Source: a virus
Taxonomy: Duplodnaviria > Caudoviricetes
DNA: 36,562 nucleotides
Virus record (IMG/VR): IMGVR_UViG_3300037087_000137
Coordinates: 1 to 36,562 of that record
Strand: one strand, 5' to 3'
Positions 14,501 through 35,390 of this stretch are shown one piece after another. Each line of letters starts with the position of its first letter. The stretch's first letter is position 1. Under the pieces are notes generated by a model. It had not been told where the DNA came from. It searched no databases and worked only from the letters and a program-made list of their open reading frames with translations. Both the position numbers and the translations under genes were made by a program.

Positions 14501-15245
14501 AGAGATACTGCTGATATGCGGGGGCCGGTGGACGAGGCTTGGCCCCCGACAGGTCGTACAGCGGACGAATGCTGGCACCGTCGAGCAACTGAAGTTCGGA
14601 CAGGTCGGAGCCAAACAGGCCCTTGCCTTCTACCCGAGTCGGGGCAAGATAGAGCGATAGGGCATCGATGACGATCTGCTGTTCGAGCGCCGCCGTGAAC
14701 CAGTTCTGAAAACCGTAGTAGTTCGAGTCCAGATGCTTGAACCACTTGACGATCTTCTGAGCCCTCTCTCTCAGGTCCTTGACCGCCCCTTTGTCTCCCT
14801 TGGAAACGGCCTGAGCGTCAGCGGTTGGTCCAATGTCCCAGGACAGCCCGGCCATTTCGTCCCGTCGGATGTTGATGCAGGTACGACCCACGCTATACAT
14901 GTCGGCGTACTTGTAGAGCACGCTGAACGGCGCGAGTTTGAACCCACCCTCGGTGCCCGGCTGCCCAACCGGAAGGTTCCAGCCGATGGGGTACTGATAG
15001 CGTCTTGGACCGGCACGTCCCGAATCCTCGGGTGTGTCGATGGGCATGGGAGGAATCGGAGATAGAGGACCGAACGCTCCATTGAGGAAGTCGGTCATCG
15101 GACGCGGTAACGCGGGCCCGATCTGTCGGCCCGCTACCCACTGAGAATAGCCCCCCACCAACGGGGAGATGCCGGGCACGGTGCCCGTGGTCATTTGGCT
15201 CTGAGCCGAGAGGGCGTTGGCAATATCCTTGGCGCTAGGTGCCGT
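11517..15245 (-). CDS. portal protein with long C-terminal extension (Pro/Ala linker, ParB-like domain, Zn ribbon, two motif-led domains); first ATG at 15194, SD-supported start ACG at 15245
   Basis: Portal-like LLDGASIRP, PYGFGPVE, FYGEGSIP and TIDQER motifs; IADGWHR ParB-like motif; CPRC..CTNC. Confidence 0.85.
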   Translation of the reverse strand, partial: TAPSAKDIANALSAQSQMTTGTVPGISPLVGGYSQWVAGRQIGPALPRPMTDFLNGAFGPLSPIPPMPIDTPEDSGRAGPRRYQYPIGWNLPVGQPGTEGGFKLAPFSVLYKYADMYSVGRTCINIRRDEMAGLSWDIGPTADAQAVSKGDKGAVKDLRERAQKIVKWFKHLDSNYYGFQNWFTAALEQQIVIDALSLYLAPTRVEGKGLFGSDLSELQLLDGASIRPLYDLSGAKPRPPAPAYQQYLWGVPRSEYQAIMTDADLETMKEDLAAAGVKEDLEPVKEYRGDQLLYMPRLPRINSPYGFGPVEQALIPFTLGMLRQNYLLDFYGEGSIPGTFVIAGTQYVTPAQQRQLQDTLNAIAGDQAWKHRIIVLPPGSSSEPQKNMDGQWQIDQMIAEQVAMIMHIQPHEIGMLPGGKSGGLSGGKGVAEQQNASVTEQRTEPDRNWWKESCFDLIIQTVFKQEDLEWKWLDFEEEEDDEKKATTQQTLIFSGQSTIDQERIENGDDAYGFPLTQSPFIMVGSQIISLDPNVPSPPPPAAPGGLPGGAPAGGPAGQALTAALQPDLGKNPDKPKHNPAAALLSDKKKDRKKGRHELADRFADNLKDVTKHPPTDGAAPGSKPAVPGTATQPSVPVATGTQTPAVAPVAPAKPKKKLADLGWDSAAKIAADQAFTDQLTVADLVKAHVKYKGDLAKIVYTYLLRSYPEKAVEWVKTGNWEYDPKVKLSDINMARRPGGRNPQKVNDISGSLKQGASMDPLVLIERQDQSEYKYDIADGWHRTLGAKDAGWDEVPAFIGTGMDDTADWGLQMQDESDSIKKAQMAELAVISRFLRKRGTIARFKPAALDPIQMRLLTADLERMERASALDAARDRIKSFGLSAPLATGIAPFDLDGQNPLDFDMTGSQGEGRRCPRCNSPMTKFERGPDCTNCRVGELAPVDKYSDDEARDDHGQWTSGGSDAGQALPDPGRAGEGLGTRDDSMDIFHDYPNPKQFVNRPIKEILSDLFAPSRNLGGPGTQLAIDAARWDADIFRELIHPTLDRPLPGPIQGWTDPQKQKIVTALLGAVEKELHKRGINPLTVSDDSATLTKYSPDQPRDDHGRFGTGDGSPSVGSMRDALRENGGFTLNVRTGQPPTAGYVVALQGHSGIMKSAKFMTDNKAARDFVKGWLKDKSSQLTKAGWVGGWLDTAHNEVVLDPVENPQGLDQAIQLGQDRNQQSIWDVVNMTEIPTGGTGDRPEG

Positions 15246-15356
15246 TAAGCCACCTCGGAGTTAGGAGAGAGGTCGGGTTGGGGAGCGTGGGAGTGAGCGC
15301 CATGGAAACGCCACAGTCCATCTAAACCCAACAGCTGGACTGACACTCGGCCGACC

Positions 15357-15779
15357 TCATGAGGGAGTTTCAATGACAAGGTTCTCTATCCATTTTACGT
15401 TTTCCTTAGGCCACTCGTCGTCACGCCAGAACTCCACCTCTGCTGGCGTCTGTCCACCAGTCTGGAAACGGATGCGTTTGACCCTCGGACAAGCGGCCGT
15501 GTGAACACCGCCGCAGTTCGCACACTTTGAGGCGGCAAGAACATTGTACTGCTCTAGTGTGACTGTTTCGGGATCGGCTGGTGCGAGTTGACGTATCTGG
15601 TTAGACAAGTTCTCGTTTGCGTCCCGAAGCCGGTCGATCTTTACCTCGGCGTCCGTGAGATCGTCGTCCAAATCGTCCTTGTCACCAACGAGACGATTGA
15701 TGACACTATTCAGCCGTTCTATTTCTTTTTGTGCGATGACGAGTTGACTCTTGTAGTGTGTGCGCCAGCGACTATTCAA
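15357..15779 (-). CDS. coiled-coil plus Zn-finger hypothetical protein
   Basis: GGAGAGG SD plus TTG at 15779; heptads; CANCGGVH...C. Confidence 0.65.
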   Translation of the reverse strand: MNSRWRTHYKSQLVIAQKEIERLNSVINRLVGDKDDLDDDLTDAEVKIDRLRDANENLSNQIRQLAPADPETVTLEQYNVLAASKCANCGGVHTAACPRVKRIRFQTGGQTPAEVEFWRDDEWPKENVKWIENLVIETPS

Positions 15780-15973
15780 TTCGGTCGCCTCTCCGATATG
15801 TGTGCCGCTTTCTCCCAAGCGTTCAGAGCCAAATTCCACTCCAAGCAATCTTCGCAGACCACTACGACATTTCCTTTGGTGTCGGCGTTGAACAACTTGG
15901 TCTCATCTTCTTTGGTGGCCGGGACGTTTGCCTCGAACTCCATCTTACAGGAGTAACAGGTATAGGTTGTCAT
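15776..15973 (-). CDS. small Zn-ribbon protein
   Basis: CYSC...CEDC. Confidence 0.6.
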   Translation of the reverse strand: MTTYTCYSCKMEFEANVPATKEDETKLFNADTKGNVVVVCEDCLEWNLALNAWEKAAHISERRPN

Positions 15974-15978
15974 AGCCG

Positions 15979-16302
15979 TCACCCTTGGTCGCCGAAGCCA
16001 CCCGTCATGAACAACACGAGCCAATACAGCTGCGGTATGAGTCCGATGCCGCCGATGAGAAACCGCACGACAATTCGGCCGGTGTCCTGACTCCAAAAGA
16101 TATTGCCAACCTCCGTGTTGAGAACGGTCAACAGGAAGACGTTGGTCAGGATCGTGATGCCCACGGCAACCAATGCACGCTCTCTCAGAGCACGCACCTC
16201 AGGCGCATGGCGGGAAGCTCGAACGAGAATGACTGCCACCGGCCAATCAAGTACGGCCGCCAGGATCAGAAGTAGGATCACAACGCTGCTCAGCGTTTCC
16301 AA
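15979..16302 (-). CDS. three-TM membrane protein (lysis-cassette-like)
   Basis: Three hydrophobic segments; GGAGG SD. Confidence 0.7.
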   Translation of the reverse strand: METLSSVVILLLILAAVLDWPVAVILVRASRHAPEVRALRERALVAVGITILTNVFLLTVLNTEVGNIFWSQDTGRIVVRFLIGGIGLIPQLYWLVLFMTGGFGDQG

Positions 16303-16475
16303 AGACGGCCTCCGGCTCTCTCATATGACTGGACCATTAGCGTGGCCCGATCTTGGGCGTCGGCCACTCGTTTCATGCTTCTTTTCACCTGCAAGACTAC
16401 ATCGTTTGTACGTGCCTCGCGAGCCTCTTGATCCTCACGCTTGTACCATGGCATAAGCCGTTCGAGGAGTTTCAT
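16290..16475 (-). CDS. small helical protein
   Basis: ATGA-coupled within the membrane-gene cluster. Confidence 0.65.
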   Translation of the reverse strand: MKLLERLMPWYKREDQEAREARTNDVVLQVKRSMKRVADAQDRATLMVQSYERAGGRLWKR

Positions 16476-16723
16476 TTCTCCCCCCTGCGAACACCTGCAA
16501 TGAAGCCGTCGAACTTGTCTGCCAATGCCGTGAGGGCGGCCACAGTTTGTTCGCCAATCGCGGTAGCCTTGTCGCCCCGTTCAACTTCGCGGTCGTAGAT
16601 GACTCCCGGTACGAGCTTGCCGGTGTAGATGAGGGCCAGCACACCGAACATCACGAATACGGCGAATACCCATCCGCCAGCGTCCGTGATGGGTTTGAGG
16701 GCTGCTAGGAGTGCCGGGTCCGC
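16472..16723 (-). CDS. single-TM holin-like protein; SD-supported start GCG at 16723
   Basis: AGGAGG-TCTTA-GCG-GAC-CCG; TM GGWVFAVFVMFGVLALIYTG followed by KLVP. Confidence 0.65.
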   Translation of the reverse strand, partial: ADPALLAALKPITDAGGWVFAVFVMFGVLALIYTGKLVPGVIYDREVERGDKATAIGEQTVAALTALADKFDGFIAGVRRGEK

Positions 16724-16732
16724 TAAGACCTC

Positions 16733-16942
16733 CTAATGCTTCCGCCGAGCCAGGCCCAATTCTTCGGCCATAGCTCGGCGGATAGAAACGGTGACTTCCT
16801 CAGAGAGGTAGGGACCGATGGCGTGGAAGAAGGCGCTTATGACCGCGTTCTGGAGACGAACATGCTCACGAGAACACCAATCCTCGTGCTTGCTTATTCG
16901 TTTCGTTGTGCGGTGCAGAGCCGATCTTCGCGCCTTTGCCAC
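16733..16942 (-). CDS. hypothetical protein
   Basis: Abuts the upstream stop codon. Confidence 0.5.
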   Translation of the reverse strand: MAKARRSALHRTTKRISKHEDWCSREHVRLQNAVISAFFHAIGPYLSEEVTVSIRRAMAEELGLARRKH

Positions 16943-17287
16943 TTACTTGGTCAGGAACTCGCGGTCGGTCTCTTCGTTGTAATCAAACGAGAATCCCAAC
17001 TGCGACAGAATCCAGTTGATGACCAGCGGCCAGACCTCACGGCGCAGAATGCCGATCACGGTGTAGGCGACTGTGGTCACAACGAGCAATGTTTCCGCCG
17101 TCGCCTCAGTCGTGTTGTGAGGCAACACCAGATTGAGAGCGCTGACTGCGGCCACAACTCCAACGACGATGTCGCGGAGGACCTTCTGAGCACCGACCGG
17201 AAGGATATCCCACGTGTTGGCCAGGAAGAGGATTACCGCCGAGACGGCTCCTCCGAACGCCTGGATAAGCCGATTGATGAACGCCAT
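16943..17287 (-). CDS. holin-like multi-TM protein
   Basis: Three hydrophobic segments and a charged C-terminus. Confidence 0.65.
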   Translation of the reverse strand: MAFINRLIQAFGGAVSAVILFLANTWDILPVGAQKVLRDIVVGVVAAVSALNLVLPHNTTEATAETLLVVTTVAYTVIGILRREVWPLVINWILSQLGFSFDYNEETDREFLTK

Positions 17288-17414
17288 GTTGACCCTTTCC
17301 GACTAGCTAGTTGATTGAGCAGACTGCTAAAGGGAAGTGTAGCGCATAGAGAAAGGCGCCAGAGCGAAGTGCCCTGACGCCTTTCGAGCAAGAGGGGGAG
17401 AGTAAATGGTTGCA

Positions 17415-17443
17415 AGCCTAAGAGGCTAGGTCGTCTCTGTCAA
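17415..17443 (-). promoter_or_regulatory. sigma70-type promoter for the membrane/head gene block
   Basis: TTGACA, 17 bp, TAGGCT on the minus strand. Confidence 0.55.
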
Positions 17444-17896
17444 GACCTCTTCTTCACGTCGCTTGACGTGTGTTACATCCTCTTCTCGCACTAACTCTTC
17501 CCAGTCCCGCATTGCTTCACCAACGAGATAGGTGATACCCATGCGATACGTGCAGCCTTCGTGCTGGCACGCGCCTCGATATGGATAGGAGCGACACATC
17601 CATGGGCGTTGCTCGTACGCCGTACACAGTCGAGTCTCGGTGTCCCAATGACGACACGTGTAGAGCGGTTGTGGGCTGTACTCGATCCACCTAGGTAGCG
17701 CACCCAGCCCGAGGTCGGTCCAGCGCTCGATTGCCTCGTGACGATTGAGAGGGACGAGCATGTCGGCGATGAACTGGCGCTCCGTCAGTGGATCGCCTCC
17801 CGGGTCATACCAAGCGGCAATGCCGTCGGGCCCAGCTACTTCCCAGGACAGTGGAAACACTGCACAGCAGCGGCCGTCGCAGGTCGGCTCAGACAC
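17426..17896 (-). CDS. YkgJ-like cysteine-cluster protein
   Basis: CDGRCC...CRHWDTETRLCTAYEQRPWMCRSYP. Confidence 0.75.
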   Translation of the reverse strand: MSEPTCDGRCCAVFPLSWEVAGPDGIAAWYDPGGDPLTERQFIADMLVPLNRHEAIERWTDLGLGALPRWIEYSPQPLYTCRHWDTETRLCTAYEQRPWMCRSYPYRGACQHEGCTYRMGITYLVGEAMRDWEELVREEDVTHVKRREEEVLTETT

Positions 17897-18055
17897 CGAG
17901 ATGACTCTTGGTTACCCAAGCCCAGTAGGCGCGGAGGCGCCAGGAGAACGGGACTCGTGTCAGATCGTGTAAATCGCACGTATGGCCGCAACCACAGTTG
18001 GACCAATGACAGGCGACCCAAGGAGTATGTCGGTAGAAGATGCGACGCCAGACCT

Positions 18056-19380
18056 TCACGACTGGCTGTCCATTTCTGCCTTGTCTCGTTCGTTTTGAAT
18101 GCGAGCCCCGAGCGCCGAGATGGCCAGGTCGAGGTCCTCTTCACGGTTGCGTGCGGTGGCCATGTGGACCACACACTCCTCCCAGGAGTCGTAATCGATG
18201 GCCTCTTGCCCTACGTGGTTGAAACACTGCCCTGGGTGCTGGCCTCCGAGTAGAACTTCTTCCGCGGCTTTGAGCACGTTCATGACAGCAGGTTGAACGG
18301 CAAGAAATACGACCGCAGCCCTTCCGTCCTCCATGTTGAGGTAGAGGCTCTTAGCGGCCTTGGCACGGAGAAAGACATGCTCGAACTCGTTACTCGTCTG
18401 CATCGACCCACTCCACGGATGCAACGACCTTGACTACGTCGGTCTCGGCTACGGGTATGCGCTCGGGATGAATCACGACGCTTCCGGCCATGTGGCCCCA
18501 CTTGGACAGGAGCAGACTACCGCTGTCGGTTCGCCCCTCGACCACCATGACCTCTCCGGTGGACTTGAGGCGGACGTGATCGCCAGCGGTGAGGTAGGAC
18601 ATCAGAGCACCAGACCACAGATGGTCGCAATGATTGCACAAGCGGCGAACAGGACCATGAAGATGAGGCCGGTCCCCGCGGAAGCTATCGCCTCGTCCGC
18701 GGTCCAAGTGGAAGGAGAGGCGAAGAGGCAAATCAGGAACCACAGGCACATCCCCAACGCGGCGATGAGCAGCCCCACTATGAGGCCGACATTGAACGGG
18801 TCCATCATTCCTCCGTTGGAATTGGTGTCAGGCGAGAGTCGCGCTTCGAGGCGATCTGTCTCGTCGCCGTCAGGATGGCGCAGCACTCCTCGCCGATCTC
18901 ACCCTGGTCAACCTCTTCGAGCCATTGCTGCGTGTGCGATTCGAGGACGGTCCTCAGGGAGGCCTTCAGCTGTTCCTGTAGGCCGTCATCGAGCTTGTAG
19001 GTGCGGTTCTGCTTGGCCACTTACCAAATCCTCTCCTGGTTCGCATCTTCCCGTTGGGCTAGATCATCGACCCTTCGCTGGCACGTGTCAAGCCCGTCTA
19101 GCAGGGGTTCGTCATGCGTGGAGCAGTAACCTGTCGGCCAGCCAGCCTTCTTGCCACAGGGCGCGCTCGCGTCATAACAGCGAAGCCCTCGCCCAGGGTC
19201 GGCCGAAACCTCAACCTCGTCGGGCTCCCAGACTGGCAGGAGCAGGCCGTCCTCGACCGCTTCCTTGGCGCGTTCGCGCATGTGAGACATGCTTTCCAGT
19301 CGTCCGGTCGTCTCATCGAACTGACGCTCGACCTCTACGAACCCGAGGCGTGCTTCCTCAACCTCCACTTTGTAATTCAT
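18056..19380 (-). other. run of about five short coupled hypothetical ORFs
   Basis: ORFs ending at 18056, 18390, 18602, 18805 and 19021 abut or overlap one another; starts uncertain. Confidence 0.55.
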
Positions 19381-19946
19381 TCGTCCTCCAGCACAACGGG
19401 GGGAAGCCCCGCGTCTCGGTTGAGATGGACCATACCGACATCTTTGAGCGAGACGCGGTTCGAGTAGAACGTGATCCCAACGGCTGGCGTCAGGTGCCCG
19501 GCTTTGATAGGCTCGTCGTCCAATTCTCCTTCAAGTAGGAGTTGGCCGTCTTCGAGCCAGACGCGAGTCACCTTGCCTGCCGAAGGTAGGTCGTGGCGGA
19601 AGTTCCATGACAGGCATGGCAGGTCGCTGATGTCCACCAGCGTGGGATCGACTAAGTCGTTGTCACCACCCGCCCGTTGATCGTCAACTGAGCGGAGCAG
19701 AACACCGTGAAAATGTTTCATGTCCAATCCAAGTGAGAGATGAGGAAAAGAGTTGGACCGACTATCAGCCAGAAAACCATGCCCTGTCAGGAACATGCCG
19801 AACTCGGTGCCGTCCTCGAATGCGCGTCGACCAGCCCTAGGGATTTGACCCCCATACCCGTCACGACGACCTTGGATAGGGCAGGTGTGCTCATCGATCT
19901 GCTCAGTGAGGTTGGGCGTGGGCGGACGTGGTGGTATGTCACTCAC
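19377..19946 (-). CDS. hypothetical protein; C-terminal half weakly resembles a prohead-protease fold
   Basis: GTGA-coupled start; NFRHDLPSAGKV...DGQLLLEGEL...PAVG...LKDVGMV. Confidence 0.45.
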   Translation of the reverse strand: MSDIPPRPPTPNLTEQIDEHTCPIQGRRDGYGGQIPRAGRRAFEDGTEFGMFLTGHGFLADSRSNSFPHLSLGLDMKHFHGVLLRSVDDQRAGGDNDLVDPTLVDISDLPCLSWNFRHDLPSAGKVTRVWLEDGQLLLEGELDDEPIKAGHLTPAVGITFYSNRVSLKDVGMVHLNRDAGLPPVVLEDE

Positions 19947-23131: not shown

Positions 23132-23214
23132 TGGTACCGACGACAGGAGTCGAACCTGCATGGTTTCCCGCTTGCTTCTAAGGCAAGTGCGTCTGCCAGT
23201 TTCGCCACGTCGGT
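23132..23214 (-). tRNA. tRNA-Leu(TAG)
   Basis: CTTGC-CT-TAG-AA-GCAAG; variable arm; ACCA. Confidence 0.9.
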
Positions 23215-23218
23215 ATGT

Positions 23219-23306
23219 TGGTGCCGAGGGAGGGATTTGAACCCTCATGGGCCATCCGGCCCACCAGCTTTTGAGGATGGCGCGTCTACCGTTTCGCCAC
23301 CTCGGC
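23219..23306 (-). tRNA. tRNA-Leu(CAA)
   Basis: CT-CAA-AA loop; long variable arm; ACCA. Confidence 0.88.
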
Positions 23307-23307
23307 A

Positions 23308-23384
23308 TGGTTCCGAAGACTGGGGTCGGGCCAGTGACCTGCGCGCCTTCAACGCGCCGCTCTTACCAACTGAGCTACTTCGGA
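23308..23384 (-). tRNA. tRNA-Phe(GAA)
   Basis: GCGCG-TT-GAA-GG-CGCGC; atypical T loop. Confidence 0.8.
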
Positions 23385-23390
23385 AAGGTT

Positions 23391-23466
23391 TGGTGAGTCC
23401 GGTCGGGTTCGGACCGACGACCCGTTGCTTAAGAGGCAACCGCTCTGGCCGCTGAGCTACGGACCC
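23391..23466 (-). tRNA. tRNA-Lys(CTT)
   Basis: GTTGC-CT-CTT-AA-GCAAC. Confidence 0.9.
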
Positions 23467-23511
23467 ACGCAAAGGTTACCTGAAATGAAGATCGAAAGTC
23501 AAGAGGGAAGT

Positions 23512-23587
23512 TGGACCGCCGACCGGGACACGATCCCGGGACCTCCACCATGGCAAGGTGGCGTTCTTCCGGCTGAACTACCGGCGG
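23512..23587 (-). tRNA. tRNA-Gly(GCC)
   Basis: CCACC-TT-GCC-AT-GGTGG; TCCA end. Confidence 0.85.
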
Positions 23588-23589
23588 TC

Positions 23590-23677
23590 TGGTGGGTGCC
23601 TCGGGACTCGAACCCGCGTGCTCCGTAGAGACCTGATTTACAGTCAGGCCCGGTTGCCCACTACCGGCAACACACTC
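23590..23677 (-). tRNA. tRNA-Tyr(GTA)
   Basis: CCTGA-CT-GTA-AA-TCAGG; variable arm. Confidence 0.88.
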
Positions 23678-23680
23678 AAT

Positions 23681-23757
23681 TGGTGGAGACAGAAGAGACT
23701 TGAACTCTCAACCTTCTCGGTGCAAGCGAGTTGCTCTTCCAATTGAGCTACTGCCCC
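23681..23757 (-). tRNA. tRNA-Ala(TGC)
   Basis: GGGGC 5' end with G3:U70; CT-TGC-AC loop. Confidence 0.9.
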
Positions 23758-24259
23758 GCGACAGTTTAACATACTTCCCCAGTCTCGTCTTGACGGCATG
23801 GTCCCACACGCACAGAACTTGTAGGTTGTGCAGATCGTTATTGGCCCGGTTGCCATCAATATGATCTACGTCCAACATGCGCGGGTCCTCGTCGTACCCA
23901 CAAACCATACATCTGGGGCCGAGGTGAGCGAAAGCACGAGGACGATAACTGGCCCGTCCGTCCTGATAGTGCTCGATCTTAAGAATGCCTGAACTTAGGC
24001 GTTGAGCCTTATCCTTACACGAACGCCCACAAAAGGACAGGGGAGACTTGAACTTCTTAGGAAGGCGCGTGATCATGGCTCCACAAAAAGCACACGCCTG
24101 AGTCTCCCGGGCCTCTTGACTGGCCCTGTCGGAACATCCCCTAGAGCAATATTTCTGGGTTCTATACGGGGGGCACAAGAAGTTAGTTCCGCAGGCACAA
24201 GTTCTGTCTTCCAGCGTTCGTATGCGACCGCCCCAGAACCCCCTCTTTGGATGATCCAT
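23708..24259 (-). CDS. HNH endonuclease (homing-type) inside the tRNA cluster
   Basis: CMVC...DVDHIDGNRANNDLHNLQVLC..DH; N-terminal Cys repeats. Confidence 0.85.
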   Translation of the reverse strand: MDHPKRGFWGGRIRTLEDRTCACGTNFLCPPYRTQKYCSRGCSDRASQEARETQACAFCGAMITRLPKKFKSPLSFCGRSCKDKAQRLSSGILKIEHYQDGRASYRPRAFAHLGPRCMVCGYDEDPRMLDVDHIDGNRANNDLHNLQVLCVWDHAVKTRLGKYVKLSRGSSSIGRATRLHREG

Positions 24260-24274
24260 ACGTCTCCCAAGTTT

Positions 24275-24351
24275 TGGCGCCCGAGGTCTGGGATCGAACC
24301 GACGACCTGAGGTTTACAAAACCCCTGCTCTGCCACTGAGCTACTGCGGGC
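24275..24351 (-). tRNA. tRNA-Thr(TGT)
   Basis: TT-TGT-AA loop; bulged acceptor and T stems. Confidence 0.8.
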
Positions 24352-24383
24352 ATGGCAGTAGTCTATCAGACAAGTCAAGAGGT

Positions 24384-24461
24384 TGGCGCTGGCGGTCGGA
24401 CTTGAACCCACATCCTGCTGTTTACGGAACAGCTGCTCTGCCTAATTGAGCTACGTCCAGC
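24384..24461 (-). tRNA. tRNA-Thr(CGT)
   Basis: GCTGT-TC-CGT-AA-ACAGC. Confidence 0.8.
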
Positions 24462-24463
24462 GC

Positions 24464-24535
24464 TGGCGCCCCGAGCAGGATTCGAACCCGCAATCTGGGC
24501 TTAGAACACCCATACCGATCCAACCGGATCGGGGC
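24464..24535 (-). tRNA. tRNA-Arg(TCT) with short D arm
   Basis: TGGGT-GT-TCT-AA-GCCCA; canonical T arm; GCCA. Confidence 0.7.
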
Positions 24536-24544
24536 AAGGAAGAT

Positions 24545-24619
24545 TGGTACTCTCGGCCAGACTCGAACTGACACCTTCGGTATGTAACACCGTGGCGCTT
24601 CCATTACGCTCACGAGAGT
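24545..24619 (-). tRNA. tRNA-Val(TAC)
   Basis: CGGT-GT-TAC-AT-ACCG. Confidence 0.85.
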
Positions 24620-24620
24620 G

Positions 24621-24695
24621 TGGCTCCCCTGACAGGACTCGAACCTGCACCCAGGTCGTTCGAAGCGACTGGCTCTTCCGTTGAGCTTCAGGGGA
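24621..24695 (-). tRNA. tRNA-Arg(TCG)
   Basis: GTCG-CT-TCG-AA-CGAC. Confidence 0.88.
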
Positions 24696-24705
24696 GCGAG
24701 TTACC

Positions 24706-24780
24706 GCGCCCGGCATAGCCGCTCTGCCATCGTGGTAGCTACTTCCACGACCAGGGAGTCGAACCCTGGGTTACCGACGC
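24706..24780 (-). ncRNA. circularly permuted tRNA-like RNA (YrlA/Y-RNA-like architecture)
   Basis: Order: GCGTC, T arm (CAGGG-TTCGACT-CCCTG), loop-closed acceptor (TCGTGG/CCACGA), D arm (GGCA-GAGCGGCTA-TGCC), GGCGC. Confidence 0.7.
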
Positions 24781-24789
24781 TTAATGTAG

Positions 24790-24865
24790 TGGTCCCGTCT
24801 GTCGGACTCGAACCGACGATTTCCTGAGTGAAAATCAGGGGCCTTAGCCTCTTGGCCAAGACGGG
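24790..24865 (-). tRNA. tRNA-Glu(TTC)
   Basis: CCTGA-TT-TTC-AC-TCAGG. Confidence 0.9.
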
Positions 24866-24868
24866 ATT

Positions 24869-24943
24869 TGGCTCCGGCAGCAGGGATCGGACCTGCGACC
24901 AAGCGGTTAACAGCCGCCCGTTCTACCACTGAACTACACCGGA
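24869..24943 (-). tRNA. tRNA-Asn(GTT)
   Basis: TCC 5' end; CT-GTT-AA loop; GCCA. Confidence 0.92.
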
Positions 24944-24947
24944 ACGT

Positions 24948-25025
24948 TGGTAGGCCAAGGTGGAATTGGACCACCGACCTGACGGTTATCAGCCGTCCGC
25001 TCTGAAACCACTGAGCTACTGGCCT
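24948..25025 (-). tRNA. tRNA-Ile(GAT)
   Basis: GACGG-CT-GAT-AA-CCGTC. Confidence 0.9.
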
Positions 25026-25031
25026 GAGGGC

Positions 25032-25061
25032 AGTCTATCAGAGGTTGCAGAAGAAACGCAA
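25032..25061 (-). promoter_or_regulatory. internal tRNA-operon promoter
   Basis: TTGCGT, 18 bp, TAGACT with extended -10 TG, just before tRNA-Ile. Confidence 0.5.
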
Positions 25062-25071
25062 GTGGGAAGTT

Positions 25072-25145
25072 TGGCACCGGTCCAAGGACTCGAACCTCAG
25101 TTTGGCGGTCCAGGGCCGCCCGTCCTACCGCTGAACGAGACCGGT
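25072..25145 (-). tRNA. tRNA-Gln(CTG)
   Basis: GGCGG-CC-CTG-GA-CCGCC. Confidence 0.85.
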
Positions 25146-25146
25146 G

Positions 25147-25223
25147 TGGTGCTCGCGGCTGGACTCGAACCAGCAGGCCAGCGGTTTATAAGACCGCCGC
25201 ACGGACCATCGTGCTGCACGAGC
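25147..25223 (-). tRNA. tRNA-Ile(TAT)
   Basis: GCGGT-CT-TAT-AA-ACCGC; ACCA. Confidence 0.85.
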
Positions 25224-25225
25224 GT

Positions 25226-25300
25226 TGGTACGAGCGGGGAGATTCGAACTCCCACCATCTTGGTCCCAAACCAAGCGTGCGGCCGTTACACCACACTCGT
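25226..25300 (-). tRNA. tRNA-Pro(TGG)
   Basis: CTTGG-TT-TGG-GA-CCAAG. Confidence 0.88.
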
Positions 25301-25304
25301 ACGT

Positions 25305-25379
25305 TGGTGAGTCCAGACAGGCTCGAACTGTCAACCCTTCGGTTAAAGGCCGAGTGCTCTGCCATTGAGCTATGGACCC
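25305..25379 (-). tRNA. tRNA-Lys(TTT)
   Basis: CC-TTT-AA loop; acceptor stem like the Lys(CTT) copy. Confidence 0.87.
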
Positions 25380-25468
25380 ATTGTTCGGGGTGATCCCTTC
25401 GGATCATGGAGCCCGAGGCATACAGAAGTCCTCGTCTGCACAGTCGGGCGCTACCCGGCGCGATGTAG

Positions 25469-25553
25469 TGGCGGACGGAGTAGGACTCGAACCCACACGG
25501 CTGTGACACCATCACGCTTTTCAGGAGCGATAAGCACACCAATGCGTCCGTCC
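25469..25553 (-). tRNA. tRNA-Ser(TGA)
   Basis: CC-TGA-AA loop; long variable arm; GCCA; short D arm. Confidence 0.8.
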
Positions 25554-25556
25554 GTA

Positions 25557-25631
25557 TGGAGGCCAGGGGCGGGCTCGAACCGCCGAACTTCCCTTTTGCA
25601 GAGGGAGCAGTTGCCACTCCTGCACCGGGCC
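25557..25631 (-). tRNA. tRNA-Cys(GCA)
   Basis: TCCCT-CT-GCA-AA-AGGGA; TCCA. Confidence 0.88.
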
Positions 25632-25637
25632 AAGATT

Positions 25638-25724
25638 TGGCGGATCGGGAGTGAGTCGAACACTCATCGGTGTTACCCGGCCTCCGCTTAGCACGCGGGC
25701 GCAATGCCGTTCTGCCACCGATCC
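25638..25724 (-). tRNA. tRNA-Ser(GCT)
   Basis: GT-GCT-AA loop; long variable arm. Confidence 0.87.
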
Positions 25725-25726
25725 GT

Positions 25727-25798
25727 TGGCACGGCGGCAGGGTGATGGTCCCTGCATGAAGGTTTTGGAGACCGACACGCCTACCGAGGCTCCACCGC
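25727..25798 (-). tRNA. tRNA-Trp(CCA), divergent
   Basis: GGT-CT-CCA-AA-ACC; T loop ACCATCA; GCCA. Confidence 0.65.
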
Positions 25799-26251
25799 AG
25801 GGATTACGATACCACGACTTGTCAAGTCGTTTCTCTTGGGTCGTTTGGCGCGATTTGGATTGACTCCGGAAGCATACTGAGCCCGACGCCATGCGTTCCT
25901 CGTCGCGTTCGGCCCAGGCTCGCGAAGCATTTGGCGACAGCGTGCAGCATGGCCCTCGGCAACAGATGCGTACTTCTTGGTCGGCTTGCGCGCAGCACTC
26001 ACGTTGCATCGGAAGTGGGAGAATGCGATGTTGGTGAGGTCCCAAAACAAGGCTACGTCTTCGTCCAGCCAAGGTTGGACGTGGTCCAGCGTGAAGTCGT
26101 CCACGGACATTTCGTTGCCACACCTCAGGCATACGTTCTCCCCCAAGCGAACCAACAGCGAGAACATTACCCGCCTCTTCAGCCGATTGACTGCGGCGCC
26201 CGTAGATTCCCCGAGTTGCAGGTCTCTCTTTGCCTGAGAGGTAGTTCTCAT
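25781..26251 (-). CDS. HNH endonuclease-like protein
   Basis: CLRC...FTLDHVQPW...NIAFSHFRCN; AGGAGG SD. Confidence 0.8.
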   Translation of the reverse strand: MRTTSQAKRDLQLGESTGAAVNRLKRRVMFSLLVRLGENVCLRCGNEMSVDDFTLDHVQPWLDEDVALFWDLTNIAFSHFRCNVSAARKPTKKYASVAEGHAARCRQMLREPGPNATRNAWRRAQYASGVNPNRAKRPKRNDLTSRGIVIPAVEPR

Positions 26252-26313: not shown

Positions 26314-26572
26314 AATACGCTCCAAGTTGCAGCCGCCACCACGAGAGCACCAGTCTGAAGATCGGCGTCCGAAGGGATTAGCCCCCGGCTTGGGATGGTT
26401 GGCGGATTTGATGCAGCTTTGCCCTTTCAGTTGTCAGCGCTCACGTTAGGAACTTTGCGCTTTCAGGGTTCAGCTTTTCGATGGGGTTAGATGACTTTCA
26501 AGGTCATTGAACCAATTATGAATTGGTCGGATGGTCCTTCAGCCTTCTCTCTGTTCGCCACCGAAGCGTATT
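26314..26572 (-). ncRNA. candidate ncRNA with paired ends and an internal heptamer-repeat tract
   Basis: AATACGCTTCGG/TTGGAGCGTATT, GAGAG/CTCTC and CTGAAG/CTTCAG long-range stems enclosing about 9 (G/C)AAAGNN-like units. Confidence 0.65.
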
Positions 26573-26576
26573 AGCG

Positions 26577-29454: not shown

Positions 29455-29531
29455 TGGTCTCCGGTGCGGGCTACGATCCCGCGTTGCGAGATTGAGAGTC
29501 TCGCGTACTGGTCCGACTATACGAACCGGAG
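29455..29531 (-). tRNA. tRNA-Glu(CTC)
   Basis: CGAGA-CT-CTC-AA-TCTCG. Confidence 0.87.
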
Positions 29532-29534
29532 AAT

Positions 29535-29608
29535 TGGCCCCCCGCAGGGGAGTTGAACCCCTGACGACTCATCGACAGTGAGTCATGTTCCCGCTACACC
29601 AGCGGGGG
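29535..29608 (-). tRNA. tRNA-Asp(GTC)
   Basis: ACTCA-CT-GTC-GA-TGAGT; GCCA. Confidence 0.9.
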
Positions 29609-29722
29609 GCGAAGGATCGGCTATCCGCTCGTTTTAGCGCTGCCGTCGGAAATGAACTAGTGCCACGTCTCACCGACCCTTGGTCCTACCGAGATCAACC
29701 GGCCAGACTACTCAGTAGACTA

Positions 29723-29956
29723 TCACGCCTTGTCAAGGTCTGGAATGACCAACCAACCCAGGCGGATCGCAGCATCGGTGTAGCAGTCGGCGTCGAGCTT
29801 GATGTAGAGACGTTCTAGCGTGTGCTTGACCGTGTAGTAGCCCAGGTGCAACTCGTGCGCGGCGACCTTGCCCGATCTGTTACGTAGACACGCGGCGAAT
29901 ACTTCGAGTTCGTGCTTGGTCGGGGGACAGTTGTGGGTGCGTCGATGACCTTCCAT
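29723..29956 (-). CDS. stand-alone LuxR/NarL-type HTH regulator
   Basis: TKHELEVF...KVAAHELHLGYYTVKHTLERLYIKL...AIRLGWL. Confidence 0.8.
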   Translation of the reverse strand: MEGHRRTHNCPPTKHELEVFAACLRNRSGKVAAHELHLGYYTVKHTLERLYIKLDADCYTDAAIRLGWLVIPDLDKA

Positions 29957-30124
29957 GAAGCCAGCCTAGCGCGCCTGTCTACTACCTGAATTGGTGGCGG
30001 GTGGCGAGAAGCCGCCGAGTAGTCTCTAATGCCACCCGCTTGGTCACTTAAGGCTTCAGTGGCGGCCTTGCAGCCCTCGGCTCTGAAACCCGTAGCCCTG
30101 TCAATTCAGGACCACTTATGTAGG

Positions 30125-30200
30125 TGGAGCCTCGCCGCGGACTTGAACCGCGCCGTTCACTTTGGAAGAGTGACATGCCAGCCGTCAACACTACCGAGGC
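30125..30200 (-). tRNA. tRNA-Gly(TCC)
   Basis: TCACT-CT-TCC-AA-AGTGA; TCCA. Confidence 0.9.
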
Positions 30201-30252
30201 CCGGTGATGGCTAAGGTAGAGGGGGCCGAGCCATCAACCTGTTGAGTATATC

Positions 30253-30414: not shown

Positions 30415-30886
30415 ACCGATCACCCCTTTCTGTGACCAGTTTACTACAGAAAATGGCAGACCATTTGTATCGCGCCGTCTGCCAGAGCGCTTGTGGATCG
30501 AATGGCGCTATCCACGCGAGCGTCACTTTGGTTCAGGCGTCCACTTCTGCCTGTTTGGGAGCTTTGTCCTCTATCCACTCCCGTGTCGCCCCTGATCCGG
30601 CTCTACACACAGCTTCAGGCCATTCCACCGTGCGCTAGGCGACATCCCCGGTGATCTTTTTCTCGGCTTAGTCCGACTCGTCCGAGTATGGTCCTTTGAC
30701 AGTGGCTAGCTCACGACCGCGGCGGACCTTTGGCACTTGGGGCAGGGTCACGTTCCGTACGCACGCCGCATCGTCCGCATCTCCAGCAAACCCGTGGACT
30801 CCGGGGCTGGGTGAGCAACAAGTGTAGGGGTACGATTTGGGTTCGCTAGGCCAGAGTCCAACCGACTTTCCTGCCCCAGAAGAACC

Positions 30887-31141
30887 CTAGTGCTTTCGGG
30901 GATCGTTGTCAACCCTGTAGTGGTAATCGAGTTCGGCGTTGCCGCCCCCGTCGAACAGCACGACAGCAAAGCCTTCTGAGGTAGGCACGACGGTCGTAAA
31001 CCCACCAGGGCCAGCATGCTTCATGAAATGAGCGGCGCCTTCCTCGATAGCAGCGTGCAAGGCAGCCTGAGCAGATGCGAGCGTCTTGCAGCGCTCGATC
31101 TCCCAGACGTGATCCTTCGTGATGCGGACGGCTGTGAACAT
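30887..31141 (-). CDS. hypothetical protein
   Basis: GAGGT SD plus ATG at 31141. Confidence 0.6.
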   Translation of the reverse strand: MFTAVRITKDHVWEIERCKTLASAQAALHAAIEEGAAHFMKHAGPGGFTTVVPTSEGFAVVLFDGGGNAELDYHYRVDNDPRKH

Positions 31142-31194
31142 ATCTACCTCAAACAGAAACCCCTGGTGGTAATGGCGCCCGGGCCCTGTCAAGC

Positions 31195-31680
31195 CTATAC
31201 CGGCTCGTGGACTGGCACCCATCGGCCGATCACACGCCCGTTGACCGTTACGTCAGTCGGGTGCTCCAGACCCGCATAGGATGTTCGGAACTCAGTGGAA
31301 GGCACTGAGTCTGCGACCTTATGTGGCCATTCGGCCATCTGAAGACCGACCGCGAGTTGGCTCTCCAACAGCCAGGTGATCCGGCTGACGTTGAACTCGA
31401 TCATGCCGCAGCTGCAAATGCCGAGGACCTCACACAGCGTGGCGCAGCCCGCTCGATGCTCGGCAAAGCCGAACTTGTTCAACGGCATCGGCGTGCGATC
31501 CAACACCAACGGGGGCAACGCCGGGCGTAGTTCGTGTTCGTCGTAAGGTCGCCCGCACACTTGCGGGTAATCGCTTGTGCCGCCCACAACAGTCATGCAG
31601 GGCGACTCCTGCCCGTACTCCGTGGACATGGAGTCAAACCGATGTCCCCGGGCCATTTCACCAACCGTAGCGACTGACAT
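31195..31680 (-). CDS. Cys/His-rich hypothetical protein
   Basis: AGGAGG SD; H...C..C....CSCG. Confidence 0.6.
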   Translation of the reverse strand: MSVATVGEMARGHRFDSMSTEYGQESPCMTVVGGTSDYPQVCGRPYDEHELRPALPPLVLDRTPMPLNKFGFAEHRAGCATLCEVLGICSCGMIEFNVSRITWLLESQLAVGLQMAEWPHKVADSVPSTEFRTSYAGLEHPTDVTVNGRVIGRWVPVHEPV

Positions 31681-31797
31681 TTTCCAATCCTCCTGCTAAC
31701 CAAGACCGGAAGTCCGGCCGGGAGGATTGTACACCGTTGTACAGAGTGGAGTGCGGTCCATTGTCCGATACGACACAGAAACAGCTACTACCGAGCG

Positions 31798-34700
31798 TTA
31801 GATCACACTCGTGACGTACGGCTGCTGGATCAGCGAGTTGCGCATGAACCCATAGCGCTTCGTGGCGACGAAGTAGCGCCCATCGCGCTCGAATAGCGTT
31901 TCGCCCATCTGCTCGACCGTGATGCGCAGCGCCTCGATCTGGACCGGATCATCACCAGCTAGGACGACCTCAACCTCATGGACGTTCGCGGTTGCTGGAC
32001 CCGGCGGCGCAGACGGCGGTGGTGCAACAGGCTTGGGCTCCTGCGCGGGCGGCGCGTCCAAAACCTGTATGCCCATCTCGGTGTAGCCGTCCTCCAACAT
32101 GCCGCCCATCGACTCAACCTCGGGGTTGTCGAACTTGTCAGGTGCTTTGGTGCCGCACTTAGGACATGGCCGACCAGCCTCGAACACGAACATGTGGGCG
32201 CAGCTGACGCAGGTCCAGACTCCGTAGGCAAAGCCGATAGAATCGGCACTCCAACCTGCCATCTTGGCTACTCCAGAAAGCGCGTCGGGCTGGTCGTCAT
32301 GCGAGCCCGGGTCGGGGAAGAACGAGCATTCGGTGGCAAAGTCGGCCCACCAATCCACATCGGCGATCTGACCTTCTGCATTGAGTCTCGGGGCAGGACG
32401 GAAGACCTTGCCCACGTTGGCTCGGGCCTCAACCAGCCTGGCTCGGGTCACCTTGTCCTTGTCGATCTTGACTGGCAGGATGGGCAGCATGGTACGCCGC
32501 GCAGCCTCCTGAACCGCGGCAGCCTGGTAGGCGACCTCCTCGATGCCAACCATTGCGACTCGTGGATACGACGCCCCCATGGAGCCGATCTCCGCGAGGG
32601 TGGTGTTGAACCCCCAGTGACCGCGGCGCACTTCGAGCAGGTACATGTTGTTGTCGTTGTCAACGCCCGCACAGATGCCAACGGTGAAGTCGGCGGTGGT
32701 CTTCTCGCTGATCGCCAGGTCCCAATACTGAAGTACGGAAATGTCCTCCCGCATAGCCATCGAGTGAGGCTCGTCCACGTACTGCGGCCATGACTCGGGG
32801 TGGAACATCTGGGTGCTCGACGGCAGCGGCTTGTTCAGGTACTCCTGTGACCAAGCCAGCACGTCGCTCTTATCGAGTGTGGCCTTGCGCACGAGCAGGG
32901 CGGCCTTCTGCCACATCTCGGGCCAGATAGGCTCCTCGGGAATGATGCCCTCACGCCAGACCGAGGCAGCGTCCTTGATCGTCGTCCAGGTCGGATCGTC
33001 AATCAATCGAGAGTACAAATCCACGTGGCTCTTCCGAGTCCCCACCACGATGAACTTGCCCCCAGGCGACAGAACGGGGATGACCTCCCGGGCCCACCAC
33101 TGAGCCGTGCTGTTGCGCACGACCTCGGACTTGACCGTCTCGGCACTCTCTACGTCGTCCGCTATCAACAGGTCGCAGTGCCGGGACGAAATCTGACCCC
33201 CGCGGCCGATGGCGAAGATCGACACGTCCTTGCCGCTGATCGCCCCTGGACCCTTGCGGGCATCGGCTAGCACGATCTCATGCTCTGTCCATCGCGCCCG
33301 GCCGCTCTTGAACGGTCGTCCCTCGTTGTAGACCTTGCTCAGTTCCTCGTTGGACTCTAGCTCGTTCTTGACTTCGTTGAGGAACTTCTTGGCCAGTTCG
33401 TCGTTGCCCGAGATGATGCCGATCCGCAGATGGTGGTTCTCACAGAGGCGGCGTAGGGCGTAGGTCCAGACCGTTGAGGAGTTGTGCGTCACGATGTCGT
33501 TGGCGACAAAGGTGTGGCTCTCGGTCTCGATGTCCCAGACCTCGGCCTCGCCCGCCGGTTCGATACTTGTGATCTCCAACCACGTCAGTTCCTCAACCTT
33601 GCGGCGAAGCTCGGCATTGCCAACAATTTCGGCGGCAGCGAGCACCTTGCGCGGCGTAGTTGGTGAGTGCCCCCCCATGCGCAGGCCCCGGTTCTTGAAC
33701 CACTTTTCACCATGCCCAACGTCTCTGCGCCACTCAGTCGGGATCAAGTCAATGCGGTCGTTGGAGGGCCCACGCTTCGCCAGATGTTCGAGGAGACGCG
33801 CCAGAGCCTCCTCTTTGCCGAAGATGCCCACGACGGCGACGAAGCGTTCGCAGTCCTCTCGCGTTCCGATGGCCAGTCGCCACTGGACGCCAAACCGGCC
33901 GGTGTCATTCCTCTGGATCAAGCACGCGATCCCCAGACGGAGGAGCAGGTGCGCCACGCCGTCGATCAGGTCTCGGCTCTTGCTGGCGTAACCGATGATC
34001 CCATTGCCAGCCGTGGTGGCGTGCCCATCGCATGCGAATAGGCGGTTTAGGAACAGGGCCTGCGTTGCTTGGTCGGCGCGGAAGATGCGGTCGGGGACGC
34101 GCTTGGTCGCCGAACCCTTGTCGTTGATGCCCCATGCCCGCGTCCATCCCGTCTGGCCCAACAGCAGATTGACGTTTACGGCGTCGTACTGACGAGTGGT
34201 TAGGCCAGCCTCGCCAGCGGCCTCCTCGAACTCAGCGCGCAATCGTTCGTTCGTGTTGGTGAACACAGATTTGCGGCCTACCAGACAACCGTCGCCGATG
34301 AGGTAGGCCGCCAGCTTGACCTCAGCATCGGGCTCTTGCTGGCCGGTCAGGTCGTACCGGCGCGGCGCAGCTATCCGGTCACCGCGCGCAAGCTCCTCAA
34401 CTCGCTTCCACCCGCCCCACGTTAGGAAGCGGTGTTCGGAGTTGGCGGTAATCCGACGGCCTCGGCGGGTCTCGATCCGATAAACCGGCTGGACCCCTTG
34501 GCTGCGCACGTCCACGACTCGGGTCGGGCCACCGAGACCGAGGACCGTATCGCCGGAGACCAGCGAGTCAATGCGACGGCGGTCCCCGCCCTCCATCAGG
34601 ACCAACGAGTCGCCTCCGAGACACTTGGCGTGCTCTCGTGGGCCCTGAACGTACAGCTGCGTGATGTCAAGGTTGTCGTAGGCGTCGTACCAGATGGTGT

Positions 34701-34881
34701 GGAACCAAGGCGTCTTCTGAGAGAAGTGGCGGAAACGCTCAGCGAACTCCTGGGTGCCCTTCGCCCATCCCTTGTGGGGATCGACCACAGCCTGCGTGCG
34801 CCGGAGCTTTTCAGTCTCTACGGCGAGCGCGATGGATTTATCTCGTTCCTCGGTGGGCAGCTTGTAGAGGGGGACTGGCGC
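31798..34881 (-). CDS. terL: terminase large subunit with intein; first GTG at 34788, SD-supported start GCG at 34881
   Basis: Spliced Walker A GPREHAKSS; Walker B LLIADDVE; VVGTR; SQEYLNKP; nuclease YWDLA...ADFT...HDDQPDA. Confidence 0.93.
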   Translation of the reverse strand, partial: APVPLYKLPTEERDKSIALAVETEKLRRTQAVVDPHKGWAKGTQEFAERFRHFSQKTPWFHTIWYDAYDNLDITQLYVQGPREHAKCLGGDSLVLMEGGDRRRIDSLVSGDTVLGLGGPTRVVDVRSQGVQPVYRIETRRGRRITANSEHRFLTWGGWKRVEELARGDRIAAPRRYDLTGQQEPDAEVKLAAYLIGDGCLVGRKSVFTNTNERLRAEFEEAAGEAGLTTRQYDAVNVNLLLGQTGWTRAWGINDKGSATKRVPDRIFRADQATQALFLNRLFACDGHATTAGNGIIGYASKSRDLIDGVAHLLLRLGIACLIQRNDTGRFGVQWRLAIGTREDCERFVAVVGIFGKEEALARLLEHLAKRGPSNDRIDLIPTEWRRDVGHGEKWFKNRGLRMGGHSPTTPRKVLAAAEIVGNAELRRKVEELTWLEITSIEPAGEAEVWDIETESHTFVANDIVTHNSSTVWTYALRRLCENHHLRIGIISGNDELAKKFLNEVKNELESNEELSKVYNEGRPFKSGRARWTEHEIVLADARKGPGAISGKDVSIFAIGRGGQISSRHCDLLIADDVESAETVKSEVVRNSTAQWWAREVIPVLSPGGKFIVVGTRKSHVDLYSRLIDDPTWTTIKDAASVWREGIIPEEPIWPEMWQKAALLVRKATLDKSDVLAWSQEYLNKPLPSSTQMFHPESWPQYVDEPHSMAMREDISVLQYWDLAISEKTTADFTVGICAGVDNDNNMYLLEVRRGHWGFNTTLAEIGSMGASYPRVAMVGIEEVAYQAAAVQEAARRTMLPILPVKIDKDKVTRARLVEARANVGKVFRPAPRLNAEGQIADVDWWADFATECSFFPDPGSHDDQPDALSGVAKMAGWSADSIGFAYGVWTCVSCAHMFVFEAGRPCPKCGTKAPDKFDNPEVESMGGMLEDGYTEMGIQVLDAPPAQEPKPVAPPPSAPPGPATANVHEVEVVLAGDDPVQIEALRITVEQMGETLFERDGRYFVATKRYGFMRNSLIQQPYVTSVI
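33481..34623 (-). mobile_element. intein with LAGLIDADG homing endonuclease (381 aa) in terminase Walker A
   Basis: Starts CLGGDSLV; block B TANSEHRF; AYLIGDG and RLFACDG; ends VTHN followed by Ser. Confidence 0.93.
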
Positions 34882-35390
34882 TAAAACTCCAGCCTCTCGC
34901 GACGGAAGCCGGGCGTTGGTGTGGAAGGTATCTGAGGCAATCCCAGCCTCTTGCGCGCCCGACGGCCGAGATGGTCTTTACCTTCAGCGTGCGCAGCCAA
35001 CTTGCGGTCATACAACTGCTTAGTCGTCTCAACCGTATGGCAGGCATGGCACAACGGTTCCAGATTATCGGGATGATGCACACACCCACTGTAGTAGCCA
35101 CGTCCCAAGAGCGGAACGCGATGGTTCACCTCTTCGGCAGGACGACCACAACGAAGACATTTGTAGTCGGCTTGCTGCATCGCTGCGGCGCGAGCAGATG
35201 TCCAGTCGTGGAGCGTCCTCCATTCCATCTCACATGGACGCTGGTAGCCCGAGCCACACCAGTAGACCTGACGGCCTTCCAGTGGCTTGCCACACCACCA
35301 ACAGATGTGCGCTACCCGACATTGCTCCCGGGTCATACTGGCCGTGATACCCGAGCGTAGGGTACAGGTCTCATATTCCTCCGGCCGCAC
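34881..35390 (-). CDS. HNH endonuclease adjacent to the terminase
   Basis: CLRC...EVNHRVP...HHPDNLEPLCHACH. Confidence 0.85.
   Translation of the reverse strand: MRPEEYETCTLRSGITASMTREQCRVAHICWWCGKPLEGRQVYWCGSGYQRPCEMEWRTLHDWTSARAAAMQQADYKCLRCGRPAEEVNHRVPLLGRGYYSGCVHHPDNLEPLCHACHTVETTKQLYDRKLAAHAEGKDHLGRRARKRLGLPQIPSTPTPGFRRERLEF

Follow-up and report, generated by a model that had tools for sequence, protein, structure and literature searches.

The stretch of DNA analysed here, which we call the window, is the whole virus record IMGVR_UViG_3300037087_000137 (36,562 nucleotides), which represents a fragment (36.6 kb) of a tailed-phage genome recovered from peat metagenomes and has a GC content of 59%. 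It encodes an intein-bearing terminase, an HNH endonuclease, a multi-domain portal fusion, MuF-like and cargo genes, a peptidase, RtcB and a second RNA ligase; it does not reach the capsid and tail genes. In four of its genes, those for the portal, a small membrane protein, the large terminase subunit and the peptidase, a Shine-Dalgarno (SD) sequence is followed by the triplet TTA and then by a near-cognate codon, ACG, GCG, GCG and CTG respectively (Table 1). Our analysis indicates that such codons very probably are real translation starts, and that related phages probably use them for a set of late genes that includes the major capsid gene.

The initial annotation of the window had singled out these four contexts, and all of them are present on the minus strand exactly as it gave them. 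It had also reported that the reading frames stay open from the near-cognate codon to the first ATG or GTG, which we find over 17 codons in the portal, 23 in the membrane gene and 31 in the terminase (3 in the peptidase), and that these downstream codons are poor in SD sequences, which we find with anti-SD pairing energies of -2.1, -5.5, -2.0 and -0.7 kcal/mol. At the near-cognate sites the pairing energy is -10.7 kcal/mol for the portal, -11.4 for the membrane gene and -9.8 for the peptidase. The terminase GCG does not reach our listing threshold of -7 kcal/mol, so that its SD must be called weak; since the HNH stop codon overlaps this GCG, translational coupling is likely there. Among the 36 called genes of the window, 19 SD-led near-cognate codons stand ahead of the first canonical start, and 4 of these 19 follow TTA, a triplet that makes up 0.25% of minus-strand triplets and occurs as 1 in 5170 gene-body codons. 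The enrichment has p = 1.6e-7, or 1e-5 after correction for 64 triplets. Two DNA runs, each of which may be the source of the record, yielded contigs (at depths of about 50 and 20) without alternative letters at the sites of the portal, the membrane gene and the peptidase; in a low-depth variant contig the spacer is altered and TTAGCG is retained. Two RNA runs from the same study have zero cover at the start sites and are evidence neither way.

Probable start sites and their homologs

We are highly confident that the near-cognate codons are used as starts. Each stands at the N-terminus defined by homologs, at a normal distance behind its SD (for the peptidase, by geometry only). The portal extension, A-P-S-A-K-D-I-A-N-A-L, fits the N-termini M-A-S/N/H-P..A-I of homologs with canonical starts, and in the database a number of its nearest homologs are annotated shorter. 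In the portal of locus L001 (83% identity) the context reads GAGG-TGA-TTA-GCG with TGA in frame, and this stop immediately 5' of TTA-GCG makes an upstream start impossible. Other relatives begin the portal with TTA-ACG (L016), TTT-CTG (the L010 group and genome G005), GTA-CTG (G002), TTC-ATA (L005) or GTA-GTA (L024). Relatives thus keep the near-cognate class of start and not the codon itself: the N-terminal extension is conserved in the portal, while the NCG codon is not, orthologs varying among ACG, GCG, CTG, GTA, ATC and ATA.

Called by eye, 11 of 70 portal starts are near-cognate. On a quick tree of 72 portal rows (2 of them uncalled; the basal row L164, from the unpublished G003, carries no start call) they are clustered, with 7 changes against a shuffled mean of 10.5 (1 of 500 shuffles), and 7 of the 9 rows in the window's own clade are near-cognate. 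The N-terminal sequence of the terminase is not conserved among relatives; the starts TTA-GTA in L197 (80% identity) and TTA-CTG in G002 (59%) lie at a distance from the conserved core similar to that in the window, and the more distant terminase of G005 starts at TTA-ATC. The 23-codon extension of the membrane gene aligns with an ortholog in L016 that starts with TTG (44% identity). This gene has no Pfam or PHROG match, and its earlier label as a holin is unproven. We found no ortholog of the peptidase for testing its CTG start, and neither a single-sequence portal scan nor a terminase scan of viral contigs gave matches. The database entry for the portal is 49 residues short at its N-terminus, and the one for the terminase 31.

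Table 1. Probable near-cognate start sites of the window, the genes that they serve, and further features
Feature	Position	Strand	Remark
Portal fused to ParB-like and cargo domains, 1242 aa, likely start ACG	11517..15245	-	PF04860, PHROG 2662; N-terminal extension fits homologs
Portal start signal GAGGT-GGC-TTA-ACG	15243..15256	-	ACG at 15245-15243; from the sequence and DNA runs
Small membrane protein, 83 aa, likely start GCG	16472..16723	-	Extension aligns with L016 ortholog
Membrane-gene start signal AGGAGG-TC-TTA-GCG	16721..16734	-	GCG at 16723; from the sequence and DNA runs
Terminase large subunit with intein, 1027 aa, likely start GCG	31798..34881	-	PHROG 38, Pfam intein/LAGLIDADG; orthologs in L197 and G002
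Terminase start signal GGAG-TT-TTA-GCG	34879..34890	-	HNH stop TAG shares one base with GCG
HNH endonuclease gene, upstream of terminase	34881..35390	-	Its stop overlaps the terminase GCG
Peptidase, likely start CTG	3889..4872	-	PHROG 16701; ATG without SD 3 codons downstream
Peptidase start signal AAGGAGGAG-CACAAC-TTA-CTG	4870..4890	-	CTG at 4872; from the sequence and DNA runs
Transfer RNA (tRNA) array	23132-25800, 29455-30200	-	Rare anticodon TAT
tRNA-Ser(TGA) with C33	near 25469-25553		C33 also in Thr(CGT) and Gln(CTG)
Permuted tRNA-like element	24696-24789	-	
Conserved non-coding stretch	26315-26573	-	Counterpart in L203, 1749-2046
Seven copies of the KYS-D[QE]xRDxxG[RQ]W tag	5397-15245	-	
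ADP-ribosyltransferase-like tagged cargo gene	10689-11354		
Zeta-kinase-like tagged cargo gene	5397-6386		
In-frame TAG after a tag	6453-6455	-	
Coiled-coil and four-Cys gene	15357-15848	-	Directly before the portal
Portal leader	15260-15357		After the four-Cys gene

Probable near-cognate starts across the phage family

Where related phages have ATG, GTG or TTG, others of the family have ACG, GCG, CTG, GTA, ATC, ATA or ATT, and the motif is wider than the TTA-RCG of the window: an SD, then TTH (H being A, C or T) or GTA, then any near-cognate codon. Our set of 33 sites is defined by orthologs and was called by eye, automated start filters having missed sites and given false candidates; the least certain members are those of L019 (GTA-CCG), L120 and L157. 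Of the 33 near-cognate starts, 29 are preceded by TTA, TTT, TTC or GTA; of 142 canonical SD-led starts in six genomes or loci that have such sites, 5 are. U is found at position -2 in 30/33 as against 25/142. The base at -1 is A at 16 sites, among them the four of the window, and U at 14, and 32 of the 33 codons are one change away from ATG, GTG or TTG. Five control genomes gave no near-cognate candidate with TTH/GTA context. Genome G012, otherwise canonical, has ten near-cognate candidates without TTH context, with possible ATC/ATT starts at 49357, 49826 and 61557.

The complete genome G005 has eight near-cognate starts, all between the terminase and the tail genes. Locus L005 has six, in the genes for the small terminase, portal, head protease and capsid and in two small genes; the head protease as such has a near-cognate start in 8 of 59 distinct rows. 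Among the G005 genes is one for a 604-aa protein that we identify by its predicted fold as an HK97-fold major capsid protein: the best Foldseek E-value is 4.7e-11 and all top hits are capsid or encapsulin, for a model with a confidence (pLDDT) of 65 and a TM to the query of about 0.33, owing to a large insertion. Its sequence has no match in PDB, so that the identification rests on the fold. Among the 11 rows in which the major capsid start was resolved (two more were unresolved), 7 have a near-cognate codon: TTT-CTG in G002, G005 and G007, TTT-ATC in G015, GTA-CTG in L024, TTA-GTA in L005 and TTT-ATA in L047. It is ATG or GTG in L008, G009, G011 and G014.

With one fixed start rule, the signal occurs in 7/38 late versus 0/50 other genes of G005 (p = 0.002) and in 4/32 late versus 0/41 other genes of the complete genome G007 (p = 0.03), and in these two genomes near-cognate starts are confined to the late module. 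Genome G014 has canonical starts, yet TTA precedes seven of its late genes. Three of the seven are stop-start overlaps, and the four TTA sites at protease, head-tail, tube-like and lysin-like genes lie away from any called gene's stop, suggesting that the triplet marks late genes independently of the codon that follows.

Overlaps of the TAATG, TAGTG and ATGA kind are an established route to translational coupling, and the overlap of the terminase GCG with the HNH stop mirrors the TAGTG at 35390. Stop-start overlap is present at the terminases of the window and L197 and at L014 (CTGA); two portal sites have short frames only, and at most others it is absent, no gene ending at the overlap at any TTT or GTA site or at the membrane gene and peptidase. 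Coupling may account for some TTA sites only. Hairpins masking the SD were rejected as an explanation: ten start regions fold no better than shuffled sequences (z from -0.33 to 1.68). The idea that the late genes are under a translational lock survives in part. Confinement to late genes and the likely start after TTA speak for it, while two of the routes of release that had been proposed, by editing or by an initiator tRNA, are not supported, as we discuss below; the third, relaxed discrimination by initiation factor 3 (IF3), may still apply.

How the starts might be read

Which codon after the SD is used? The SD lies only 1-2 nt from TTA in L014, L197 and the membrane gene of the window, and in G005 AGGAGG directly abuts TTT. 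The codon after the triplet, on the other hand, is 3-8 nt from the SD, like the canonical starts of these genomes. Since TTA is too near the SD at several sites, the start is most likely the codon that follows the TTA, TTH or GTA triplet, as judged from this spacing. The same distances of 0-2 nt tell against TTA (or TTT/GTA) being itself the start, as its constancy in the window might suggest, and the family N-terminus M-A-S-P sets Met on the following codon. Reading of these codons by an initiator tRNA of the phage, which was also part of the initial annotation, would be in keeping with a window tRNA with anticodon TAT and an initiator-like tRNA-Met in L197. However, the same starts are found in genomes without tRNAs: ARAGORN finds none in G002, G007 (complete) and G015, and tRNA-Asp only in the complete G005. 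The window, a partial fragment, has no tRNA-Met. We consider these two variants, a TTA start or a phage initiator tRNA, very unlikely.

C-to-U editing, by which plant organelles make AUG from ACG, is less probable still and to our minds the least credible of the explanations weighed here. As in organelles, there is a genomic ACG where a start is needed, and all four window sites and 20 of the 33 family sites are one C-to-U change from a canonical start (AUG, GUG or UUG). But the suggested editing of UUA-RCG fails at orthologous sites that read GTA, ATC or ATA: 13 of the 33 codons are GTA, ATC, ATA or CCG and cannot be mended by one such change, and a single terminase site reads GCG, GTA, CTG or ATC across four phages. 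Nor does an editing enzyme track the trait. The deaminase family PF00383 is present in G005, G010 and G016 (weakly in G011) and absent from G002 and five others; a dCMP-deaminase family gene occurs in the near-cognate G005, yet also in G010 and G016, although a host enzyme could serve. Almost as improbable is initiation by elongator tRNAs as a means of evading host defences that destroy tRNAfMet. The window tRNAs can read ACG, GCG and CTG, and cleavage of tRNAfMet by VapC provides a precedent, being reported to stimulate initiation at elongator codons (PMC3905216). Against it, three near-cognate genomes carry no tRNA, and elongators would not need the likeness to ATG, GTG or TTG that all but one of the codons display. 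The further suggestion that the starts are deliberately weak to serve low-stoichiometry proteins is disfavoured, since the major capsid has near-cognate starts in seven genomes.

The explanation that we favour, at about even confidence and from the sequences compared, is that the host's fMet-tRNA starts late genes at near-cognate codons behind an SD and a U-rich triplet, and that this throttles virion synthesis. The ordinary initiator tRNA of the host would initiate at the near-cognate codon; the SD would bring the codon that follows TTA into the P site; and the U-rich triplet may partly prop the mismatched codon-anticodon pair or keep the site open. Initiation would be low if transcripts leak or the host is starved, through proofreading by IF3 and competition from AUG messages, and adequate late in productive infection, when late transcripts dominate and the translation state of the host is favourable. 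Most genes that are coupled behind these through a stop-start overlap have normal starts, so that the output of entire clusters would be set by a few weak ones. The phage would need no dedicated factor for this.

Several reports bear on these steps. Relative to AUG, E. coli initiates with 1-2% efficiency at CUG, AUA, AUC and AUU and with 0.1-1% at other codons, for the most part using Met (10.1101/063800); messages with non-AUG starts are translated well in extracts from rich medium and 30-60% worse in extracts from minimal medium (PMC5499595); and weak starts with strong SDs in S. aureus yield about 10-30% (PMC13009471). Moreover, A37 of tRNAfMet pairs with U at -1 (PMC10018350), and positions -1 to -3 co-evolve with start-codon switches (PMC5622118).

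A number of observations weigh against this host-driven throttle. The most troublesome is yield: at the E. coli rates of 0.1-2% the capsid would be badly under-made, which would call for a more permissive host or a phage factor and keeps those two alternatives alive. The A at -1 in nearly half of the sites, the four of the window included, cannot pair with A37, and U at -2 is the only constant base of the triplet context. The TTH/GTA pattern was defined post hoc on orthologs that are non-independent, and 4 of the 33 sites lack it. At three sites (the terminases of the window and L197, and the CTGA of L014) TTA is also part of a stop-start overlap. The late bias in G002 is non-significant at 6/86 versus 1/36 (p = 0.67), for an interval of late genes that is broad. 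Finally, close relatives differ in whether a given gene has a canonical or a near-cognate start, a pattern that fits tolerated drift too.

One way out of the yield problem would be for the starts to stay virtually silent at first, with start-codon selection being relaxed by a phage product late in infection. This could be an IF3 antagonist, an enzyme that modifies the ribosome (an ADP-ribosyltransferase, for instance) or an RNA-binding activator that reads SD-TTH. We regard such an active lock as rather unlikely. It would suit the weakest starts sitting on the high-copy capsid and tail genes, and the late genes of G014 being marked by context even with canonical codons. Cargo genes with the tag D[QE]xRDxxG[RQ]W, moreover, are found in 5/5 near-cognate versus 0/5 canonical genomes and in 11/16 near-cognate versus 0/32 canonical loci, and in the window they include ADP-ribosyltransferase-like and zeta-kinase-like genes. 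We tentatively entertain, with hardly more conviction, a version in which the virion module is locked by non-standard starts in an SD-UUH context and a phage product, possibly a tagged cargo enzyme, disables host proofreading late. But this association comes from two related clades, the tag being absent in the fetched stretches of L005, L019, L024, L047 and L001, and it may reflect only kinship or host. An IF3 domain was found in 0 of 5 genomes searched, and Pfam placed none of 133 non-structural proteins of G005 and G002 in a family related to translation; most of these small genes have no family, and a divergent translation factor could be among them. Searches with blastp and phmmer gave no non-structural gene shared by near-cognate phages only, the exceptions being the tagged cargo and a few proteins that are small or come from the tail region.

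Alternatively, the host may simply be permissive, with SD-TTH-near-cognate sites always read well enough and the codons acting as fixed dimmers or being tolerated drift. Sister phages do exchange ACG, GCG, CTG, GTA, ATC and canonical codons freely, and some phage genes belong to actinobacterial-type families; host-atlas matches below 0.9 lean towards Actinomycetota. Yet drift should hit early genes too, and none is affected in G005 or G007, while in highly expressed genes selection normally favours AUG (PMC5622118). We judge this permissive reading improbable, more so than an active lock.

SD-led near-cognate starts are known in bacteria, such as AUU in E. coli infC and, in S. aureus, AUA in infC, ccpN and citZ and AUU in cvfC1 (PMC13009471). 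The phage sites resemble the infC type in having a strong SD before a near-cognate codon at a conserved N-terminus, and we propose that they share its low, partly condition-dependent initiation. They differ in that a whole functional class is affected, capsid included, in their use of the rarer codons ACG, GCG and GTA, and in that the codon varies while the TTH/GTA context at -3 to -1 is kept. Mimicry of the infC start context was rejected: the starts of infC, read for 12 of 15 bacterial loci, are without TTH/GTA. In gut phages, stop-codon recoding is biased to late and lysis genes (10.1101/2021.08.26.457843). There too an oddity of the code is concentrated in late genes and a role in expression timing is proposed; here, however, it acts at starts, and an enabling tRNA is neither needed nor generally encoded. 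Likewise, the U-rich bases before the start recall the quadruplet pairing of A37 with U at -1 (PMC10018350), a base found in 14/33 of our sites, but the constant base in the phages is U at -2 and the window sites have A at -1.

Near-cognate initiation as such is thus already known, and what is new is a late-module set with a shared context that includes the capsid; a literature search, with limited access to subscription papers, found no paper on such a set. Bacterial near-cognate starts have so far been known as rare single-gene devices. A capsid starting at CTG, GTA, ATC or ATA and a portal and terminase at ACG or GCG contradict the AUG rule for abundant proteins and would imply either that the hosts are much less strict in selecting starts or that the phage has a means of relaxing this selection. 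For studying how the bases at -3 to -1 and IF3 set start-codon fidelity, the 33 natural sites are ready-made substrates, and they are a reminder that gene callers truncate or miss such starts. An active lock, if true, would parallel, for start codons, the recoding of stop codons and represent a new timing route for late genes.

Other features of the window and its relatives

ARAGORN finds 24 tRNAs in the window; within the fragment the array contains no tRNA-Met or Leu(TAA). Position 33 is C in Thr(CGT), Gln(CTG) and a Ser(TGA), the last of which ARAGORN missed. Several window tRNAs have C at position 55, and both Thr tRNAs have a bulged acceptor stem. In the initiator-like tRNA-Met(CAT) of L197 (18734-18808), three pairs of the anticodon stem are G-C, position 33 is C and the D arm is odd. 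One tRNA-like element of the window has its halves in permuted order (3' strand of the anticodon stem, T arm, acceptor 3', short linker, acceptor 5', D arm, 5' strand of the anticodon stem); re-joined, the halves pass ARAGORN at a lowered threshold, and no join gives a normal anticodon loop. A non-coding stretch of 260-300 nt, 74% identical between the window and L203 and rich in GAAA-type hairpin loops, is a candidate new structured RNA; it has no Rfam match, and one pattern found nothing in viral contigs.

The tag precedes varied cargo domains, occurs also inside the portal, and is found in G002, G005 and G007 as well. A few codons past one copy, an in-frame TAG, with no variant in the two DNA runs, separates the MuF-like gene from an open frame of 351 codons, and may represent either read-through or a broken fusion. 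The coiled-coil and four-Cys gene before the portal has matches in 62 loci. The leader that follows it has a conserved GTCAGTCC..GGACTG stem and CCATGG, and the region is a candidate late promoter, packaging site or regulator; a conserved upstream open reading frame from CCATGG was rejected because the frame differs among relatives. The terminase intein occupies residues of about 90-470, and related terminases (P0122) and portals (L016) have inteins at differing sites. In L005 the capsid gene (18357 onward) meets a stop 150 codons in and an HNH frame comes next, an arrangement that resembles an intron insertion.

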